Positions 39,082 to 64,000 of a stretch of DNA of 64,000 nt are shown here, in pieces; the first letter of the stretch is position 1; every line of letters begins with the position of its first letter. The notes below the pieces were generated by a model that saw nothing but the letters and a program-made list of their open reading frames with translations, searched no databases and was not told the DNA's origin. The position numbers were made by a program, and so were the translations under genes. Origin of the DNA: Deltaproteobacteria bacterium (GTDB lineage Bacteria; Desulfobacterota; Syntrophobacteria; BM002); NCBI GenBank assembly GCA_037384945.1, contig JARRNM010000013.1:1321-65320 (forward strand), in the 5' to 3' direction.

Positions 39082-39813
39082 CTAGAGGATTTGACTGAGG
39101 AATAGCTTGGTGCGGTCGTGGGTGGGATTGTGAAAGAAATGCTCTGGCGTGCCCACCTCAACAATTTTGCCCTCGTCCATAAAAATTACCCGATCCGCAA
39201 CCTCCCGGGCAAAACCCATCTCATGGGTTACCACCACCATAGTCATCCCTTCCCCGGCCAGTGCTTTCATGACATCAAGCACCTCTCCGATCATCTCAGG
39301 ATCGAGAGCCGAGGTCGGCTCGTCAAAGAGCATCACCTTGGGGTCCATTGCCAAGGCCCTGGCGATGGCAACCCTTTGCTGCTGACCACCGGAGAGGTTG
39401 TCCGGGTAGGAGTCGGCCTTCTCAGGGATGCCCACCTTTTTCAAGAGGGCCATGGCTTTTTCTGCCGCCTCTTTTTTGGAGCGTTTTCGCACTACTGTCT
39501 GGGCCAGAGTCAGATTTCCCATAACCGTCTTGTGGCCAAAAAGATTGAAGGACTGAAAGACCATACCCATTTCCTCTCTGACCTTGTTGATGTTGGTCTT
39601 GTGATCGAGAATATCAATCCCGTCTATGTAAATATGGCCTTTGTCAGCTTTCTCCAGCATATTCAGACAACGCAGCAATGTGCTCTTGCCCGATCCCGAG
39701 GGGCCGATGATCACCACCACCTCCCCTTTATCAATTTGGCATGAAACATCGACCAGTGCCTCGACCTTGTGGGTGGTATAGAAGGTTTTATGAACGTGTT
39801 CCGCCCTAACCAC
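39082..39813 (-). CDS. Polar amino acid ABC transporter ATP-binding protein
   Basis: Walker [18 protein letters not shown], Walker [15 protein letters not shown] start overlaps the corrected permease stop (GTGGTTAG). Confidence 0.9.
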
Positions 39814-40754
39814 CGATTGCAGTCCTCCTTTCCAGATATTGAACGAACATGGACAGGGTAAAGGTCAGCATTAGATAAAGAATAGCACAGATGAACCAAA
39901 GTTCGAAAGGCTGCAAGCTGCTGGTGACCACTGAACTGACCTGCCAACGGCGGCAGAATCCGGCGGAAGGCCTGTGGCAGGATAATGTAGCCCATGGATT
40001 GCGGATAGGTCATCCCAAGAGAACGAGCCGCTTCCATCTGCCCCCGGTGAATAGACTGGATGCCGGCTCGAACAATCTCGGCCACATAAGCCCCGGCGAA
40101 CACTGCCAGGGCAGCCACACCGTACCACAGGGCTGAGAGTTGGCCTATGCCCTGTTTGGCCAGCAAGGTATTGAACACGGTCCCCAGGACGAAATACCAG
40201 ATAAAAATCTGCACAAGAAGAGGTGAACCCCTTATGAGTTCGATGTAGGTAATCGCTGTCCACCTGAGGGCAGGATTCTTGGAGATCCTGGCCAGACCGG
40301 CAAAGAGGCCTATTATAATTCCCAGGAACACGGCAATGATACTGACTTTCAGGGTAATCCACAGCCCTATAAGCAGTATGCCAACTTTCCATTTCTGGTA
40401 GACGCCAAGGATGTCACCGGGATAAATGTAGGCCCCCTTGCTCACCTGCAGCGAACGGGCAGGGACTGGATAAACCTCCTCCACATCACCTCCCCGGACG
40501 GCGACCTCCACTTGATCCCCTTTGGGTACCAGAGAGACCACTTTGCCGCCTATCTGCGAGCGGACTTCAATGGTGTCTTTGTAGAAGAAGTACTGGGGTA
40601 TCCGGTACCAGCGCCAGACATAATCCACCTTCTTAGTGGCTATCAAAAGCAAGAGGATGACTGTGGCCATCATCAAGAAAAAGAAAATTATTGAGATGTG
40701 ACGCCAGCCACGGGTTCGTAGATAGTCAGTGAGTGAAAAGCTGCCTGTGGTCAC
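39806..40754 (-). CDS. Polar amino acid ABC transporter permease (HisM/GlnP family) with a long N-terminal extension and an apparent 1-nt frameshift near 39926-39940
   Basis: Frame 0 matches the family up to ...[16 protein letters not shown]. The last TM ([38 protein letters not shown]) is encoded in the +1 frame, which ends at TAG 39806-39808. Confidence 0.7.
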
Positions 40755-46149: not shown

Positions 46150-46986
46150 CTAGGTCGGTACTATCTCCATACTCATATCAACTGCGCGGGCTGAGTGGGT
46201 TAGAGCTCCAATTGATATCAAATCAACCCCTGTAGCAGCAATCTCTCTGACATTTGCCAGGGTAATTCCACCGGAGGCCTCAAGGGGGATTTTGCCTTTG
46301 GTTCGCCGCACTGCCTCAGCCATGGTTTGTAAGTCCATGTTGTCCAACATTATTACGTGAGCACCTGCAGCAATTGCTTCGGCCAACTGGTCGAGGGTTT
46401 CCACCTCCACTTCCACCCTCAGAGTATGAGCCTTGCTATCCAGTGCCGCCTTAACCGCCATAGCCATCGAGCCCGCTGCCGCAATGTGGGGGTCTTAGAT
46501 TAACACCCCATCCTCAACTCCGAGGCGAAGGTTGTTAACCCCCCCGGCGCGCACTGCAGCCTTTTCCAATAAACGGTATCCCGGGGTGGTCTTACGGGTG
46601 TCCAGAATGTGTGCTCTGGTTCCCCCTATCTTGTCCACAAAAGCCCTAGTGAGCGTGGCGATACCGGAAAGCCTCTGAAAAAAATTGAGGGCCGTCCGTT
46701 CCGCCGTGAGGATGGCTGCCAGATCGCCCGCTACCTCCAAAAGCGTATCCCCCTCATTAGCACGGCTCCCGTCTTTTAGGGGAAGATGAATCTGCAACTC
46801 GCTATTAATAGCCCAGAAAACTTGTCTCGCCACGTCAACGCCTGCAAGCACCAGCGGCTCTTTGGCTGTGATCCGCCCCTTTCCCTGAATCCCTGGCTTC
46901 ACTGTGCAAGAAGTGGTTATATCGCCACTTCCTACGTCCTCCTCCAGGGCTGTGCGAATTAACATTTCCAGGTTTGGAGATAGCAA
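46150..46986 (-). pseudogene. nadC: Nicotinate-nucleotide pyrophosphorylase (NadC) with an in-frame TAA at the conserved catalytic Lys codon
   Basis: Two adjacent same-strand ORFs align end to end with NadC. The junction reads GVLI*DPHIAAAGS where the family has (F/V)LIKDNHI. The stop TAA is at 46495-46497. Confidence 0.7.
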
Positions 46987-49848: not shown

Positions 49849-51111
49849 TCACTCCCCTGATTCCAGAGAACTCTTTATCTTTTCAATCTCCTGAGCTAGT
49901 AAGCGTTCAACAATATCAGGCAATCGCTCTTCAACCAGACGGGTCAACACTTCTTCAACCTGACCACTCACCAGGGATGCCAACTCCTCGGCTACATTCG
50001 GGGCGATTTCCTCAGAAATATTCATCTGCTTTTCCTCTTCTGTCTCCCCTTCCAAGTCGGCAACCAACCCTTCGGACTCTTCCTCTACGGCCAGAGCCGA
50101 CGCCGCCGCTACTGTCTCGTCGATAAGGCTGTCCAATTCCCCTTCAAAATCGCTAGCCACGTCTTCAGAACCTTCTTCTCCAGCAGAAGCTGAGGCTTCG
50201 GCTACCTTCTCGTCGAAAGCGCTATCTAATTCCCTGTCAAAATCGGTCACGACTTCAGCTGGAACTTCTTCTTCAATAGCAGGTCTTGTCTCGGAAGTGT
50301 CCCCTTCCTCGCCTACACCTTCAGCCTCCATCTCCAAGTCTGCAAAAATATCTTCGGGCAGCTCTTCCTCCGACACTGGGGCCGCCTCAAAAGCCTCCCC
50401 TTCCTCGCTTACACCTTCAGCCTCCGCCTCCAGATCTGCAAAAAGATCTTCAGGCAGCTCTTCCTCCGACACTGGAGCCGCCTCGGAAGTGTCCCCTTCC
50501 TCGCCTACACCTTCAGCCTCCATCTCCAAGTCTGCAAAAAGATCTCCGCCCGGTTCTCCCTCTGATACTGGGGCCGCCTCAAAAGCCTCCCCTTCCTCGC
50601 TTACACCTTCAGCCTCCGCCTCCAGATCTGCAAAAAGATCTTCGGGCAGCTCTTCCTCCGATACCGGAGCCGCCTCACCAGAAGGACCACTTTCAATTTC
50701 CCCGGGAGAACCAGCGGCCTCCTCTAAGAGCTTAGCAACTTCACTTTCGTGGGAGGCAAAGAGTTCGGCGAGAGCCTCGTCGCTGAAAAGCTCGTCTTCG
50801 GCGATTTCCTCGTCTGCTTCTCCCGCAGCGGCTTCGCTTGTCTCATCCTCATCCCTGAGTGATCCTCCAAGCTCGCTTTCCCTCTCACTCCAAGAATCGC
50901 TCTGGCTATCTCCCTCATCTTCACGAGGTTCCATCATAGAGTCTTGCGAAGGTTCATCCTCCCCAAGCTCCAGTTCCACATCAAAATCTTCCAAGGAAAG
51001 ATCCCTGTCCTCGTTCAATATTTCATCATGGGCAAGGGAATCATCGGATTCCGCACCTTCCCCCTCCAACGGATCAACCAGATCGATGATCTCATCGTCA
51101 AAGTCATCCAA
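49849..51111 (-). CDS. Hyper-acidic tandem-repeat protein (420 aa) with ~30 aa repeats (EELPEDLFADLEAEAEGVSEEGEAFEAAPVS) and a short conserved basic/hydrophobic C-terminus
   Basis: Nucleotide-level tandem repeats at 50290-50690. The opposite-strand Ser-rich ORFs are artefacts. Confidence 0.65.
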   Translation of the reverse strand: MDDFDDEIIDLVDPLEGEGAESDDSLAHDEILNEDRDLSLEDFDVELELGEDEPSQDSMMEPREDEGDSQSDSWSERESELGGSLRDEDETSEAAAGEADEEIAEDELFSDEALAELFASHESEVAKLLEEAAGSPGEIESGPSGEAAPVSEEELPEDLFADLEAEAEGVSEEGEAFEAAPVSEGEPGGDLFADLEMEAEGVGEEGDTSEAAPVSEEELPEDLFADLEAEAEGVSEEGEAFEAAPVSEEELPEDIFADLEMEAEGVGEEGDTSETRPAIEEEVPAEVVTDFDRELDSAFDEKVAEASASAGEEGSEDVASDFEGELDSLIDETVAAASALAVEEESEGLVADLEGETEEEKQMNISEEIAPNVAEELASLVSGQVEEVLTRLVEERLPDIVERLLAQEIEKIKSSLESGE

Positions 51112-53693: not shown

Positions 53694-54911
53694 TTATTGA
53701 GCGTTTAGCCACTGATTGAGCAAATAAGGCTTGGCCTCCTCGAATATCATACATTCGTTTTCGATGTATTCCTCTGCCTGCTGGATGGACATTCTTTCGG
53801 TTTTCTTGATCAACGACAGCGTCTTACCAACAAAGAGAGGCAATAGTGATTTCAGCAGCACATCCCTTCCCACCACTTCATTCTTATAGGCCACCGAGCA
53901 ACTATAAAGTAGGCGAGCCCAGATTTCCGAAGGAAAGCTAAAATGCGCCTGAGGCAGCTCCTTGATTTCCCCCAGCTTATTATTGATGTTGTTTGGCAAA
54001 AAGGTTTCCCATAAGTCTTTATATTGGCTAAAGCCCTCAACAAAAGCTCGGTGAAGTTCGTCCTGCAAGATCTCAATTGGTGGGGGCGTTTCTACTTCAC
54101 CCATGCCGAAACCGTATATTGCCGTGGGCTTACTCCACTTTACTCTTTCCCAGACATCCTGAAAACGGATCATCAGATCAAGAACGGTACCCACCACTTG
54201 AGAGAAAGTCGGCTCAGAGGCAACACCATTTCCGTTATTCTGGGAGACTCTCGGTTTACCTACAAAGGCCTGACAGATTGGGACGCCTTGACACATGGCT
54301 AGAGTGGTCATCCAGATATCAACCCCATATTGAGCCACTCGATCATTCCAGCTGGGATGGTTGAGATAAGTCTCAGCCATCACTGCATCAAAGGCAAAAT
54401 CGCCACCGATGGGCTGCCGCACCCGGCGACCATAGAGAGCTCGTGTCATCGGATAAACTATGCCGTTTGCCATGGCATCATTGTACTTGTGCCTCACGTA
54501 CAATGGGGCTACAAAACCGAATCCGGCGAAAATGGGCTCTCCGAGGTTTTTGATCCACATGGGAGTAATACTCTCCACCCCTGCGTCCACTGCTATCACC
54601 GCTTGCGCCTGTAGTTCAACTGCCTTGGCTGTAAGATTTCTTAGGTTATAGCCTCGCCCGACCACTCCCGGGGGTGTTGACAGGTATATTAGAAATGCTT
54701 CTTTGGTTCCATCCTCGGAGTGATTATCGCAATTGATAATCACCGAACTTTTCTCACCAAAATGATCTACGAGACCTTTGGCAGCTTGCTCAGTTGACAG
54801 GGCGATGTTCCCTGCATTGGTATGAGAGGATAAGCCGACAACCAGGTCAGCCCGTTCCACTTTTCCGGGATTTTCCTCGTATGCTAGCATATTTGTACTT
54901 TCCCCAGGCAT
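53694..54911 (-). CDS. GT-A-fold glycosyltransferase (GT2/GT81-like; possibly a glycosyl-glycerate/phosphoglycerate synthase type)
   Basis: ADLVVGLSSHTNAGNI, then VIINCDNHSEDGTKE (the DxxSxDxT-type motif of GT-A enzymes) and AVIAVDAGVES (DxD-like). Confidence 0.5.
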   Translation of the reverse strand: MPGESTNMLAYEENPGKVERADLVVGLSSHTNAGNIALSTEQAAKGLVDHFGEKSSVIINCDNHSEDGTKEAFLIYLSTPPGVVGRGYNLRNLTAKAVELQAQAVIAVDAGVESITPMWIKNLGEPIFAGFGFVAPLYVRHKYNDAMANGIVYPMTRALYGRRVRQPIGGDFAFDAVMAETYLNHPSWNDRVAQYGVDIWMTTLAMCQGVPICQAFVGKPRVSQNNGNGVASEPTFSQVVGTVLDLMIRFQDVWERVKWSKPTAIYGFGMGEVETPPPIEILQDELHRAFVEGFSQYKDLWETFLPNNINNKLGEIKELPQAHFSFPSEIWARLLYSCSVAYKNEVVGRDVLLKSLLPLFVGKTLSLIKKTERMSIQQAEEYIENECMIFEEAKPYLLNQWLNAQ

Positions 54912-59895: not shown

Positions 59896-62079
59896 TTGGC
59901 ACAGGATGTGCTTATCCTCAGTGAGATGAAATCACACCGAGAAGATGGACTATTAAACAAGGGTTGTGATCCAGTGGAAAAGTCCAATGTAGTTTTGGTG
60001 GCTGAGAACGACAACGAGATCAGAGATCTGGTTTACACTCAGCTCGAAGCAGACGGGTTCAAAGTAATTTGTGTTACCAGCGGTGACCAGGCGGTTAGCG
60101 AGAGTCGCAGCCTGAAACCAGATGTCATTGTCATGGATCTGAAGATGCCAAGAATGAACGGCATCGAGGCTATAAAAATACTGAAAAAGGACAAAAGCAC
60201 CCGGCATATTCCCATTATAGTGGGGACGGTGGCCGAGGAAAGAGAAGACATAGTAAAGAGCTTTGAAGCCGGGGCAATATCTTACATCTCAAGACCTTAC
60301 TACATGCCGGAATTGAAGGCGAAGATCAATTCTGTTCTTGAATCAAAGAAGCTTTATGACAACTTGATGCAGTCGGAAGAGAAATACCGCCTGCTGGTTG
60401 AAAATGCCAACGACGCCATTCTGGTCATCCAGGACGAAATTCTCACATTCTATAATCCGAGAGCTTCTGAGCTCTTTGATTATCCAGAGAAAAAGCTAAG
60501 GTCCACCCGCTTTGTGGAATTTCTCCACGGGGAAGACAAGGACGAGTTTCATGAGTACCAAGACAGAATCCTCTTGGGCAGAAGAGCCTGCCCGGCCCTT
60601 TCTTTTCGCCTCCTGTCGAATGATGGGAATTTCAGATGGGTGGAGGCAAAGGGTGTCCTCATAGACTGGGATGGCAACCCCGCAACTCTTCATTTTCTTA
60701 CTGATATTACGGCCCGCAAGCGGACAGAAGAAGAGATGCGCTTTCTGGCCTTCTATGATTGTCTGACCGGTTTGCCTAACCGGCTGATGTTTAATGAACA
60801 CATGAATCAAACCCTGGCTTATGCCAGACGCAATAATACTCTCGTTGCCGCGCTATTCTTGGATCTCGATCATTTTAAGCGGGTTAATGATACACTTGGC
60901 CATCACTTGGGTGACACTCTGTTAAACGCTGTGGGAGAACGCTTAATAAGGATAATACGTAAGAGCGACATTCTCGCCCGCAATGTCGAAGACATATGCA
61001 ACACAAATATAGCCCGCTTCGGTGGAGACGAGTTTGTCTTGCTCCTTACTAATATCAAGAAAGCGCAAGACGCGGCTAAGGTAGCCAGACGCATTCTTTA
61101 TACACTTTCCGACGCTTTTGTTTTGGATTCTCACAAAATATTTATTACCACCAGCATTGGCATCAGCCTCTTTCCTGCTGACGGGCAAGACGGTGAGACT
61201 TTGATAAAAAATGCCGATAAAGCAATGTATCATGCGAAGAACTTGGGTAGAAACAATTACCAGTTTTATGCAGACTCTATCCAGGGTGGCACCTCCGAGA
61301 GGGTTACACTCAAAGCGGACCTCTACAAGGCCCTGGAGGCTAAGGAGCTGATTCTTTACTATCAACCACAACTGTCCATTGACACAAGATCGATCATCGG
61401 TACTGAGGCTCTTATACGCTGGCAGCATGCAAATTTAGGTGTGGTGCCTCCAGCAGACATCATACCGCTGGCTGAAGAAAGCGGTCTCATTGAATCTGTG
61501 AGCAAGTGGGTGCTTCAGACCGCCTGCCAGCAAAATCTGGCCTGGAGAGAGGCCGGGATGACAGAAATGCGCATGTCCGTGAATCTGTCCAGTCTCCTGT
61601 TAAAAGAGCAAAAACTGGCAGATCTGATCGCTGAGGTCTTAAGCGACACCGGGGCGGACCCATCTTTTTTGGAGATTGAACTTCCGGAAAGCTCCTTAAT
61701 TCAAGAAGAAGACGCGGTTAAAGTTTTGCGGGATCTAAAGGATATAGGTGTTAGGATAGCCGCTGATGATTTTGGCACTGGTTATTCATCCCTGCACCAT
61801 CTAAGGAACGTCCCTCTGGATGTCTTGAAGATAGATCGATCCTTCATAAAGAATATTCCCGAAAATGGTGATAATGCCGCGATTGTTGCCGCCACCATTG
61901 CCATGGCACACAGCCTGAACCTGGAAGTTGTGGCAGTGGGAGTAGAGACTGAAGCGCAGCTGGAATTTTTGCGCGAGCGAGGATGTGACACCATTCAAGG
62001 ATACCTGTTCAGCCCACCTCTACCGGCCTATGATATTATCCCACTGCTGCAGGAAGAAGGCCTCGAAGTCACGATGTAA
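59896..62079 (+). CDS. Response-regulator receiver / PAS / GGDEF / EAL multidomain c-di-GMP turnover protein
   Basis: REC (VVLVAENDNE...VIVMDLKMP), PAS, GGDEF (RFGGDEFVLL) and EAL (EALIRW ... DDFGTGYSSL) motifs. Confidence 0.9.
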   Translation: MAQDVLILSEMKSHREDGLLNKGCDPVEKSNVVLVAENDNEIRDLVYTQLEADGFKVICVTSGDQAVSESRSLKPDVIVMDLKMPRMNGIEAIKILKKDKSTRHIPIIVGTVAEEREDIVKSFEAGAISYISRPYYMPELKAKINSVLESKKLYDNLMQSEEKYRLLVENANDAILVIQDEILTFYNPRASELFDYPEKKLRSTRFVEFLHGEDKDEFHEYQDRILLGRRACPALSFRLLSNDGNFRWVEAKGVLIDWDGNPATLHFLTDITARKRTEEEMRFLAFYDCLTGLPNRLMFNEHMNQTLAYARRNNTLVAALFLDLDHFKRVNDTLGHHLGDTLLNAVGERLIRIIRKSDILARNVEDICNTNIARFGGDEFVLLLTNIKKAQDAAKVARRILYTLSDAFVLDSHKIFITTSIGISLFPADGQDGETLIKNADKAMYHAKNLGRNNYQFYADSIQGGTSERVTLKADLYKALEAKELILYYQPQLSIDTRSIIGTEALIRWQHANLGVVPPADIIPLAEESGLIESVSKWVLQTACQQNLAWREAGMTEMRMSVNLSSLLLKEQKLADLIAEVLSDTGADPSFLEIELPESSLIQEEDAVKVLRDLKDIGVRIAADDFGTGYSSLHHLRNVPLDVLKIDRSFIKNIPENGDNAAIVAATIAMAHSLNLEVVAVGVETEAQLEFLRERGCDTIQGYLFSPPLPAYDIIPLLQEEGLEVTM

Positions 62080-62248
62080 TCTCACCCAGCATTTTTTCTA
62101 ACCCGGCGATTGTTTCCTCAAGTTCTTCGATCTCTTGAACCTGGTGCGGTCGAACAGAATGAGCCGGCAAAGCAGTTTCTCTATCGCGAAGCCTCGCTTT
62201 CAGTTCCTCAATTTCCTCAAGCAATCTTTCTCTTTTGCTCTTAGCCAT
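62069..62248 (-). CDS. Hypothetical 59-aa coiled-coil protein (SlyX-like flavour). Its stop overlaps the 3' end of the GGDEF-EAL gene.
   Basis: Hand-translated MAKSKRERLLEEIEELKARLRDRETALPAHSVRPHQVQEIEELEETIAGLEKMLGEITS. Confidence 0.25.
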   Translation of the reverse strand: MAKSKRERLLEEIEELKARLRDRETALPAHSVRPHQVQEIEELEETIAGLEKMLGEITS

Positions 62249-62315: not shown

Positions 62316-62545
62316 CCGGAGTAATGGAGTCCAGCGATTTTAAATTTTAGAATGAAGATTTCAGATTTAAGAGCTCAGAACTCACCGGCACGAGATGCAT
62401 GAAGCTTCATTCTGCAATCAACAATCCAAAATCATAAATGATATTTGCTCCACTACTCCAATGTAGCTTATTTAAAGGCAAAGCCCTTGAGTTTGACCTG
62501 GCCCAGAGGACCTGGTTTTCTCTACGGTTAAAGAATAATTCCTCT
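62316..62545. repeat. ~230 bp composite repeat, downstream copy flanking the GGDEF-EAL gene. Same termini and 3' tail as 59587-59850 but a different internal hairpin (GAATGAAG...CTTCATTC).
   Basis: See 59587-59850. Confidence 0.6.
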
Positions 62546-63594
62546 AAACAGTTTTCAAATGCTCCCGAATCATCAGGGCTGCACTGGCCCCCTCACCGGC
62601 AGCACTAGCCACCTGCTTGGTGCTTCTGTCCCGCACATCACCGGCAGCAAAGATACCAGGCACACTGGTCTCCAGTAGATGAGGATCTCGCTTTTCGTAA
62701 CCCTTGGGTCGTTTGCCACTGTGAACCAGATCATGGCCTGTTACGATGAAACCCCATTGATCCAAGATCACACCGCTTCCGGTGAGAAAGCCAGTGTTCG
62801 GCTCCAGACCAATAAAAATAAAGGCTCCATCTATAGGCAGATCCTCTTCCACACCATTTTGATTGTTCGCTATTCTGAGCTTCTTTAACCGGGAGCCCTC
62901 ACCCAGAAATTCTTTTACTTCTGTATGCCAGAGCACATCAATTCTGGGATGGCTCAAAACACTCTCCTGAATGATCTGGGTGGCCTTGAACTGGCCGCTT
63001 CTCACCAGCAAGGTCACCCTTTCGGCAAATTTGGTCAATAAAAGGCTCTCCTCGGTGGCGCTGTTACCACCACCCACCACTGCAACACTCTTTCCTTTAT
63101 AAAAGGGGCCATCGCAGGTGGCACAAAAATGCACACCGGCTCCCATGAATTCGCTTTCACCGGGCACATTCAGTCTTCGGTAGCGGCTTCCCGTGGTAAT
63201 GAGCAGGGCGCGACCGCTATACTCGGAACCGTCTCCGGTTTGCACGCAATGGTAGTTTTCATGACTATGAACGCGATCCACCTCCTGCGCCTGAAGTAAC
63301 TCCACCCCAAAGCGTTCCGCTTGTTGACGCAACCGTTGAGAGAATTCCATACCAGCCACCCCGTCTGGAAAGCCGGGCATATTGTCCAGTTTTTCCGTGC
63401 CTGCAGCCTGTCCTCCGAAGGCAGCCCGTTCTATCACCAGGGTATCGATGAACTCTCGAGCCGTGTAAACGGCTGCAGTCAGACCGGCAGGCCTGTTCCC
63501 CTAGAAACTGCTTGCTTTGCCGGCAATCTGGGCACCAGTAGGCGCCATAAACGGTTATTTCTCCTTTCGCCATATCTCTCATCTCCTTTTGCAT
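62544..63594 (-). pseudogene. trxB: Thioredoxin-disulfide reductase (TrxR, CATC active site) with a disrupted N-terminus. The FAD-binding GxGxxG region is in frame with a TAG (63500-63502). An upstream out-of-frame ATG opens a glutaredoxin/thioredoxin-fold-like leader (ITVYGAYWCPDCRQSKQFLGEQ).
   Basis: The intact ORF 62544..63437 starts at residue ~45 of TrxR. The same frame upstream reads MAPTGAQIAGKASSF*GNRPAGLTAAVYTAREFIDTLVIERAAFGGQ. The frame -1 ORF 63265..63594 begins with the CxxC motif. Confidence 0.6.
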
Positions 63595-64000
63595 CTGAAC
63601 TCAGAGGGGTGTCACTCCAAAACCGTTGATACTTGAAGATACTTGCCGATGTTTTGTCACCACCAGCCGCGCCAAGGCGAAAATCAAAATCTTCAGTATT
63701 ATATGATAATCACTTTGTCTTCTCTGTGCCCTTTCTGGCCGAAAGGAGTCTCAGCAGTTGCTTTGTCGGATCTCCGGGTAAAATGTTTGATCTTATCTAA
63801 AAAAATTGACTTTTTGCCAGACCCTGGTCAATCCCGGACAATGGATTTTCTTTCCCATTTCAGCAGGTAGATTGTGCTCATATATTTACTCTTGGGAATC
63901 CAGGTAAATCACCTCCTGCACTTAGTTGGCACACTTTAGATTTTCTTCTATCTATGATCCGAATGACTCCGATAAAAAGATATTTCGAACCACTTGACAA

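Follow-up and report, generated by a model that had tools for sequence, protein, structure and literature searches.

A thioredoxin reductase gene in two reading frames

How does a thioredoxin reductase (TrxR) gene come to lie in two reading frames, with a stop codon upstream of one and a CxxC leader stranded in the other? The question is raised by a locus in a 64,000-nt stretch of DNA, hereafter the window, which spans positions 1,321 to 65,320 (forward strand) of contig JARRNM010000013.1 in the metagenome-assembled genome (MAG) GCA_037384945.1 of a Deltaproteobacteria bacterium (Desulfobacterota; Syntrophobacteria; BM002). The original prediction, drawn from the letters of the window, held that the TrxR N-terminus is broken by an in-frame TAG and preceded by an out-of-frame CxxC leader; this description stands, and all the strings that it quoted were found on the minus strand. 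Comparison with near-identical contigs makes it essentially certain that the lesion is one clean 212-bp deletion in a gene that fuses a glutaredoxin-like (Grx-like) domain to TrxR. The window gene is an ordinary dead or mis-assembled gene, and neither a recoding signal nor a new architecture.

The locus is made up of the following features, the fold topology of the Grx-like remnant being taken from the predicted model of an intact homologue, P0001.

63583..63589, minus strand: Shine-Dalgarno-like AAAGGAG, read directly, 9 nt 5' of the homologous start and conserved in L001, a more distant syntenic contig
63561..63567, minus strand: second AAAGGAG, in codons K3-G4-E5, 22 nt from the first and 12 nt before an out-of-frame ATG at 63548-63546
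63496..63573, minus strand: Grx-like codons 1-26 (MAKGEITVYGAYWCPDCRQSKQFLGE), beta-1 and helix 1, all that is left of the domain; DNA 100% identical to contigs L002-L008
63523..63534, minus strand: CPDC redox motif of the Grx-like domain; C14, P15, D16 and C17 do not vary across 52 homologues
63501..63503, minus strand: TAG upstream of the TrxR frame; Grx codons L24/G25 (cTA Ggg) in the +1 frame
63493..63494, no strand: deletion junction, with 212 bp absent relative to all comparators; blunt, 0 nt of microhomology
62544..63493, minus strand: TrxR remnant, beginning inside Gly98 of GGGPAG and ending at the stop, without beta-1 and two motif glycines
62544..63437, minus strand: mechanical TrxR open reading frame (ORF) from a GTG, 297 aa
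63265..63594, minus strand: mechanical ORF of 109 aa, with an upstream ATG at 63594, 26 genuine Grx codons and ~76 out-of-frame TrxR codons
63114..63125, minus strand: CATC redox-active disulfide of the TrxR module, intact; C221-A-T-C224 is invariant in 52 homologues
63057..63074, minus strand: GGGNSA pyridine-nucleotide-binding motif, intact, placed by alignment to the D. radiodurans TrxR 2Q7V
63005..62982, minus strand: VRSGQFKA, at the canonical HRRxxxRA place, by alignment to 2Q7V

The Grx-like frame opens at ATG 63573-63571, the same start as in the 413-aa homologues, and the AAAGGAG at 63583-63589 is likely its ribosome-binding site. It encodes MAKGEITVYGAYWCPDCRQSKQFLGE and then unrelated residues until a stop at 63265 (in the ORF 63265..63594 the CxxC frame reads MQKEMRDMAKGEITVYGAYWCPDCRQSKQFLGEQ before it turns into nonsense), and translation from this ATG yields a 102-aa product that is mostly nonsense. 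The original prediction had taken an ATG near 63547 as the opening of the CxxC frame; the ATG at 63548-63546 opens the TrxR frame (MAPTG...), and the mistake stems from the second AAAGGAG, which sits inside codons 3-5, a short distance ahead of that out-of-frame ATG. The TrxR frame lies one nucleotide out of phase with the Grx-like frame. It reads MAPTGAQIAGKASSF, the TAG at 63503-63501 and GNRPAGLTAAVYTAREF; written from the SSF that precedes the stop, it goes on through GNRPAGLTAAVYTAREFIDTLVIERAAFGGQ over 318 codons to the stop at 62544, and the two frames overlap by few codons (GGG GAA CAG and G GGG AAC AGG). The TAG had been placed inside the GxGxxG motif that binds flavin adenine dinucleotide (FAD); it arises from Grx codons L24/G25 read in the +1 frame, and the GGGPAG motif itself is cut by the deletion, which leaves only ..RPAG, with beta-1 and G96/G97 gone.

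What remains of each half is readily recognised by profile searches. The TrxR frame scores 301.9 bits against TIGR01292, from profile position 7 to the end, and matches Pyr_redox_2 at 6.6e-39. The Grx-like frame matches no more than the initial ~22 positions of the models for glutaredoxin, mycoredoxin and YruB (positions 2-22 for the latter two), and the remnant reaches 12.9 bits against Pfam glutaredoxin, for a cut-off of 22.9. Judging from established TrxR structure, the gene as written in the window cannot make a flavoenzyme, the 297-aa ORF being without the FAD-binding start. None of the products expected from the broken allele (297 aa from the GTG, 278 aa from an ATG, 109 aa or 102 aa) is on record in protein look-ups across a 15-billion-protein collection, and a promoter and terminator scan of the locus returned nothing beyond shuffled expectation.

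Near-identical contigs carry the gene intact

Contigs of the Joint Genome Institute (JGI) were found through the window's 59-aa and DnaJ proteins, which are present in them residue for residue. Intact alleles stand in at least seven of these contigs (L002-L008) from six JGI metagenomes (3300056877, 3300056879, 3300056896, 3300057003, 3300057004 and 3300057030), whose identity to the window is 99.7-100% in either flank of 63494/63493. All of L002-L008 hold an extra 212 bp at this point, which gives one uninterrupted ORF of 420 aa (413 aa from the MAKGE start), and the extra 212 bp are identical in the four copies that we compared base by base (L002-L005). Upstream of the junction, 507 nt of DNA and the 26 N-terminal codons are 100% identical to the contigs with the intact gene, so the Grx-like start is not there by chance. 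A DNA alignment of the window to the more distant L001 likewise shows a single 212-nt gap in the window, with an otherwise colinear coding sequence. The two-frame state is unique to the window contig, and every other relative examined has a single ORF. The original prediction had proposed to check for a small indel between 63490 and 63550; what was found there is the 212-bp deletion at 63494/63493.

Numbered on the 413-aa protein, the first base lost is the third of codon 27 and the last base lost is the first of codon 98 (212 nt being 70 codons plus 2 nt), so that residues 28-97 are gone and the frame is shifted by +1. This removes the Grx-like domain from strand 2 to helix 3, including the cis-Pro loop, together with the linker, the FAD-binding beta-1 and two glycines of GGGPAG. 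Residues invariant across 52 aligned homologues in and at the edge of the lost stretch are H27-Q-I-P-Y31, W33, I56-P57-T58 and G96-G97. That the 212 bp might be an insertion, an intein or a mobile element in the other contigs was ruled out, since they encode invariant Grx and FAD-site residues in 52/52 homologues. Among the proposals of the original prediction, a decayed Grx-TrxR fusion is therefore borne out as the origin of the gene, the near-identical alleles and more than 100 homologues being single proteins of 413-420 aa, and the intact sequence keeps its fused CxxC domain rather than reading as a plain TrxR.

The endpoints of the deletion are devoid of direct repeats and the junction has a single possible placement, to the nucleotide, which rules out a repeat- or microhomology-mediated event; the loss does adjoin a run of nine G. 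A 278-aa homologue that starts with MPGFPDG (P0055) was considered as a second broken copy and rejected, as it is merely cut by the end of its contig. An exact search with the 33-mer across the junction returned 0 matches in the genome_contigs and metagenome_contigs collections, a result that is uninformative because a 41-mer common to both alleles also returned 0: these collections do not hold this population.

Other lesions in the same contig

The 212-bp deletion is not the only one in the window. Over a comparable 41 kb, alignment to the JGI contigs shows four deletions in the window (24, 40, 71 and 212 nt) and no insertions, at a divergence of 0.3% or less, and three of the four throw out of frame a gene that is whole in each JGI contig compared. 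For the segments at 1-14 kb and 28-37 kb of the window, look-ups returned no exact protein matches. The three further deletions are as follows.

~54689/54690, minus strand, in ORF 53694..54911: in-frame deletion of 24 nt (QASSDIPK lost) in a glycosyltransferase-like gene, relative to all JGI contigs
~51129/51130, minus strand, ORF 49849..51111: deletion of 40 nt that frameshifts the N-terminus of a 467-aa acidic-repeat protein, relative to L006, L008, L009 and L012
~39932, minus strand, in ORF 39711..40754: 71 nt lost relative to L012, L013 and L014, which puts the C-terminus of an ABC permease (BPD_transp_1) out of frame

The 40-nt deletion takes the codons just after the start of the acidic-repeat protein, and the 71-nt deletion leaves an ABC permease of 347 aa, compared with 339 aa for the intact form. 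Junctions of the deletions have 0-1 nt of microhomology and no repeats. At the 71-nt junction, a tract of 10 substitutions (39948-40053), mostly at silent third-codon positions, comes to an end, as if two haplotypes were joined there. The JGI contigs, when aligned among themselves over ~125 kb of pairwise alignment, show 0 indels for 113 substitutions.

Two observations tie these lesions to the deposited sequences. The glycosyltransferase with the 24-nt deletion is exactly NCBI MEJ2427803.1, so the window reproduces the deposit and the lesions belong to the MAG. Moreover, a contig of a sibling NCBI MAG (L015; GCA_037385085.1, JARRNL010000031.1) ends exactly at the 40-nt breakpoint. Exact protein matches put the window on a 71,480-bp NCBI contig with locus tags P8075_, which carries MEJ2427772 to MEJ2427814. 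In protein look-ups, the intact fusion in its 413-, 416- or 420-aa form has no NCBI source.

The nadC gene (46150..46986, minus strand) shows a lesion of another kind. It differs from three JGI contigs by 14 substitutions within 79 nt (46460..46538), 13 of them transversions, which turn GGGYNHRLGLYDGVLIKDNH into GGVNNLRLGVEDGVLI, a stop and DPH, with K164 replaced by the stop. The same cluster is present in the sibling contig L015. A small inversion was ruled out as its cause, the mismatch positions being asymmetric. Separately, the gene of the acidic protein contains tandem repeats (50290..50676) whose period is either some 96 or some 192 nt, and the copy number apparently varies among JGI contigs, the protein being 510 aa in L013 and 467 aa in L012.

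Contig defect or deletion allele

Where does the 212-bp deletion come from? We favour, with a probability of roughly 0.55, a defect of the MAG contig at the level of assembly or of a minor variant, rather than the organism's normal state. Such a defect could take the form of a mis-join, of a gap that was collapsed, or of an assembler path that was chimeric or followed a minority of the reads. Several observations favour this technical origin: four deletions and no insertions in 41 kb, three of them breaking genes that are intact in the JGI contigs; the complete lack of indels among the JGI contigs; the repeat-free junctions, blunt or with 1 nt of microhomology; the substitution tract that stops at the 71-nt junction; and the G9 run that abuts the 212-bp loss. 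Sequencing error, one of the three readings first proposed, thus fails as a base-level indel, while an assembly-level defect remains a live explanation for the 212-bp loss.

A number of points nevertheless pull the other way. De Bruijn assemblers normally create no junction that lacks read support, and no shared k-mer links the two 212-bp breakpoints; taken together, this means that reads across the junction probably exist, which fits a real deletion allele as well. The end of L015 at the 40-nt breakpoint is also what a real presence/absence polymorphism does to an assembly graph, and the nonsense cluster in nadC, common to L015 and the window, hints at genuine gene decay in the source population.

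Somewhat below even odds, the strongest competitor is a genuine strain-specific pseudogene, produced by a recent 212-bp deletion through illegitimate recombination and presumably tolerated because another thioredoxin reductase is encoded in the genome. The clean junction with its error-free flanks agrees with this explanation, as does the general deletion bias of bacterial mutation. Another of the deletions coincides exactly with the end of the sibling contig, as expected for a real polymorphism; the nadC nonsense cluster recurs in two MAGs of the same series; and the in-frame 24-nt deletion of a neighbouring gene stands in an NCBI protein record. However, at the rate of four deletions per 41 kb, three of them gene-breaking, and at no more than 0.3% divergence, a free-living genome would hold hundreds of newly arisen pseudogenes. 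In six other metagenomes this same population has zero indels and an intact fusion gene in every contig, and none of the other assemblies in the collection has the products expected from the deleted allele.

Still more tentatively, and in our view rather unlikely, the deletion could be a genuine loss-of-function allele that segregates in a natural population, one of several very recent gene-breaking deletions, with the intact protein an uncharacterised self-contained reductase. If this were true, that protein would combine a mycoredoxin-like CPDC domain with a TrxR whose site for the phosphate of NADPH (reduced nicotinamide adenine dinucleotide phosphate) is altered, with VRS..K for HRR..R, and the system might draw on another electron donor or act on a client dedicated to the stress response, in view of its HSP20 and DnaJ-like neighbours.

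To the remaining explanations we give next to no credence. A programmed +1 frameshift, as had been proposed, could join the CxxC leader to the TrxR frame in a short Grx-TrxR protein and is geometrically possible where the frames overlap, but all relatives, including the alleles with identical flanks, have one uninterrupted ORF, the two-frame layout is found in none of the other contigs examined, and the shifted product would be without 70 residues, among them such invariant parts as the cis-Pro loop, the FAD-binding beta-1 and the two leading glycines of GGGPAG. Separate genes, one for a short glutaredoxin and, after it, an ordinary trxB with a start of its own, would recall the standalone Grx-like relatives of 85-90 aa in the library of representatives at 50% identity; with only 26 Grx codons present, a score well under the Pfam cut-off, a TrxR frame that has no start ahead of the truncated GxGxxG and begins at profile position 7, and syntenic orthologues that are fused, this arrangement is vanishingly improbable. 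A base-calling indel of 1-2 nt between 63490 and 63550 would account for frames that are one nucleotide apart, but repairing the frame leaves the protein incomplete, 212 nt being absent, and the flanks have no single-base differences from four other assemblies, which makes its probability negligible.

The intact fusion belongs to a widespread family

Whichever way the deletion arose, the locus is a single gene whose predicted product carries a mycoredoxin/NrdH-type CPDC domain fused N-terminally to a low-molecular-weight TrxR. The TrxR part has more than 100 homologues at 76-92% identity, almost all of 413-425 aa, with PF00462 ahead of the pyridine-nucleotide-disulfide oxidoreductase domains (Pyr_redox_2). 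They come from Syntrophobacteria, Desulfobacterales, Thermodesulfobacteriota and 'Deltaproteobacteria' MAGs, the named members being Desulfobacterota MAGs, and are called 'thioredoxin reductase (NADPH)' or 'FAD-dependent oxidoreductase', of which NCBI uses only the latter. Searched alone, the Grx-like domain retrieves 633 clusters (at 50% identity) at E <= 1e-10, among them full-length fusions of ~380-420 aa, many N-terminal fragments above 100 aa and proteins of 85-90 aa that stand alone. An N-terminal Grx on a low-molecular-weight TrxR had been thought unusual; as read from these sequences, the architecture is common and the norm for a widespread family.

The intact N-terminal domain scores 35.8 bits against PF00462, and its best NCBIfam match is the mycoredoxin model TIGR02200, at 78.2 bits for a cut-off of 89.5; its predicted sequence thus resembles mycoredoxin without being an equivalog. 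The YruB model is also among the closest, and the domain falls under its cut-off as well. Its best relative in the PDB is M. tuberculosis mycoredoxin-1 (2LQO, E = 1.4e-13, residues 4-80). The topology predicted for the N-terminal part of the intact P0001 is beta-alpha-beta-alpha-beta-beta-alpha, and its AlphaFold model has a predicted local distance difference test (pLDDT) score per 10-residue block of 70-95 across residues 1-90 and of 90-95 across residues 31-70; the whole model, with a mean pLDDT of 66.7 and a predicted template modelling score (pTM) of 0.58, is too poor for inter-domain geometry. A linker of ~15 residues separates the Grx-like domain from the TrxR module.

For the TrxR module, the best PDB match is the D. 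radiodurans TrxR (2Q7V, E = 1.3e-74). The intact allele P0121 reaches 315.4 bits against TIGR01292 and, like the window remnant, falls below the TrxB equivalog cut-off of 343.45. GGGPAG is invariant in the intact homologues (52 aligned). GGGNSA is present, while HRRDTLRA of 2Q7V aligns to VRSGQFKA of the window module; with this sequence at the HRRxxxRA place, the preference for NADPH or NADH is uncertain and cannot be read from the sequence. Relative to the D. radiodurans enzyme, the module also contains an insertion of ~18 residues, HDLVHSGKRPKGYEKRDPHLLE (62735..62670, minus strand).

In the literature, we found no paper on a bacterial low-molecular-weight Grx-TrxR fusion, the only mentions being of the eukaryotic TGR and of generic TrxA-TrxB chimeras. 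The bacterial Grx-like-TrxR subfamily thus appears to be uncharacterised biochemically and annotated generically. What is new here is one more redoxin fused to a low-molecular-weight TrxR, an expected variation on known fusions.

Gene neighbourhood

The contig of the best match P0001 (L001) is syntenic with the window: in both, the fusion gene is followed by a 59-aa ORF, a response-regulator/PAS/GGDEF/EAL gene, a DnaJ-like gene and a low-molecular-weight phosphatase gene. For the response-regulator protein, L001 and the longest ORF of the window both give 727 aa; in the JGI contigs it is called at 717 aa. The neighbours include two divergently transcribed HSP20 genes, the DnaJ-like gene and the phosphatase gene, which is ArsC-like. 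These neighbours give a loose, speculative hint of a stress context.

The 59-aa ORF (62069..62248, minus strand) comes directly after the fusion gene, in overlap with the end of the GGDEF-EAL gene. It encodes a charged, probably coiled-coil protein that is conserved and syntenic in L001 and in all JGI contigs. It corresponds to MEJ2427811.1, and its NCBI name, 'histidine kinase', looks like a mis-annotation. In the NCBI numbering, one record, MEJ2427812, stands between this 59-aa gene and the HSP20 protein MEJ2427813, which lies beyond position 64000; among the candidates of 297, 278, 109 and 102 aa that we compared, MEJ2427812 is none.

Meaning

The locus calls for caution, because an odd stop with an out-of-frame CxxC leader tempts one into ideas of recoding or of a new architecture, where near-identical contigs reveal a plain loss of 212 bp. 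For a contig with three further losses, inferences on the gene content and pseudogenes of the MAG are untrustworthy without checks at the level of reads. The intact Grx-like-TrxR fusion is itself abundant in metagenomes and makes a reasonable small target for biochemistry.

Comparison with known systems

How would the intact protein work? Electrons would pass from NAD(P)H to FAD, from there to the CATC disulfide, then to the CPDC of the fused Grx-like domain and finally to client disulfides. We propose this relay on the model of NTRC, AhpF and the M. leprae TrxR-Trx fusion, as well as of two systems in which reductase and redoxin are separate proteins, NrdH/TrxR and Grx-like/TrxR.

In NTRC of plastids and cyanobacteria and in the M. 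leprae TrxR-Trx protein, a low-molecular-weight TrxR is likewise covalently joined to a thioredoxin-fold CxxC domain, so that reductase and substrate form one polypeptide; the NTRC-type structures 7P9D and 7P9E are among the PDB matches of the TrxR module. There, however, the redoxin is C-terminal and a true thioredoxin with WCGPC, whereas here it is N-terminal and mycoredoxin/NrdH-like with WCPDC. That TrxA and TrxB occur fused as 'chimeric enzymes' across bacterial phyla is on record (PMC10880999).

AhpF has the same order of parts, with a redox domain of thioredoxin fold at the N-terminus and a TrxR-like flavoprotein module after it, and the TrxR part does match AhpF models strongly (257 bits for TIGR03140), as well as the structure 1HYU. 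In AhpF the N-terminal part is a duplicated Trx fold of about 200 aa that carries the CxxC, whereas the intact protein has one Grx-like domain; the scores also lie far below the cut-offs of the AhpF models (257 vs 503 and 265 vs 688), and no AhpC gene is adjacent to the fusion gene in the loci examined.

TGR/TXNRD3 of animals and flatworms also bears an N-terminal glutaredoxin on a thioredoxin reductase. Its TrxR, however, is of the high-molecular-weight, glutathione-reductase-like type, with a C-terminal selenocysteine or cysteine centre, and is evolutionarily unrelated to the low-molecular-weight bacterial module; the TGR model TIGR01438 gives only 31 bits vs a cut-off of 476.

Mycoredoxin-1 (Rv3198.1, 2LQO) is the best solved relative of the N-terminal domain. 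Proteins of the mycoredoxin/NrdH type are free-standing and of about 80 aa, whereas here the partner reductase is fused, and the active site is CGYC in mycoredoxin-1 but CPDC in the Grx-like domain of the fusion. NrdH and the Grx-like proteins of Thermotoga and Clostridium pasteurianum are reduced by TrxR-type enzymes, which amounts to a two-protein version of the fusion.

Canonical TrxB (TIGR01292; 2Q7V and E. coli 1TDE) shares with the reductase module the fold and the motifs GGGPAG (in the intact alleles), CATC and GGGNSA. It differs in having HRRxxxRA at the NADPH 2'-phosphate site, where the fusion has VRSGxFKA, and the fusion further adds the ~18-residue insertion and, at its N-terminus, the Grx-like domain.

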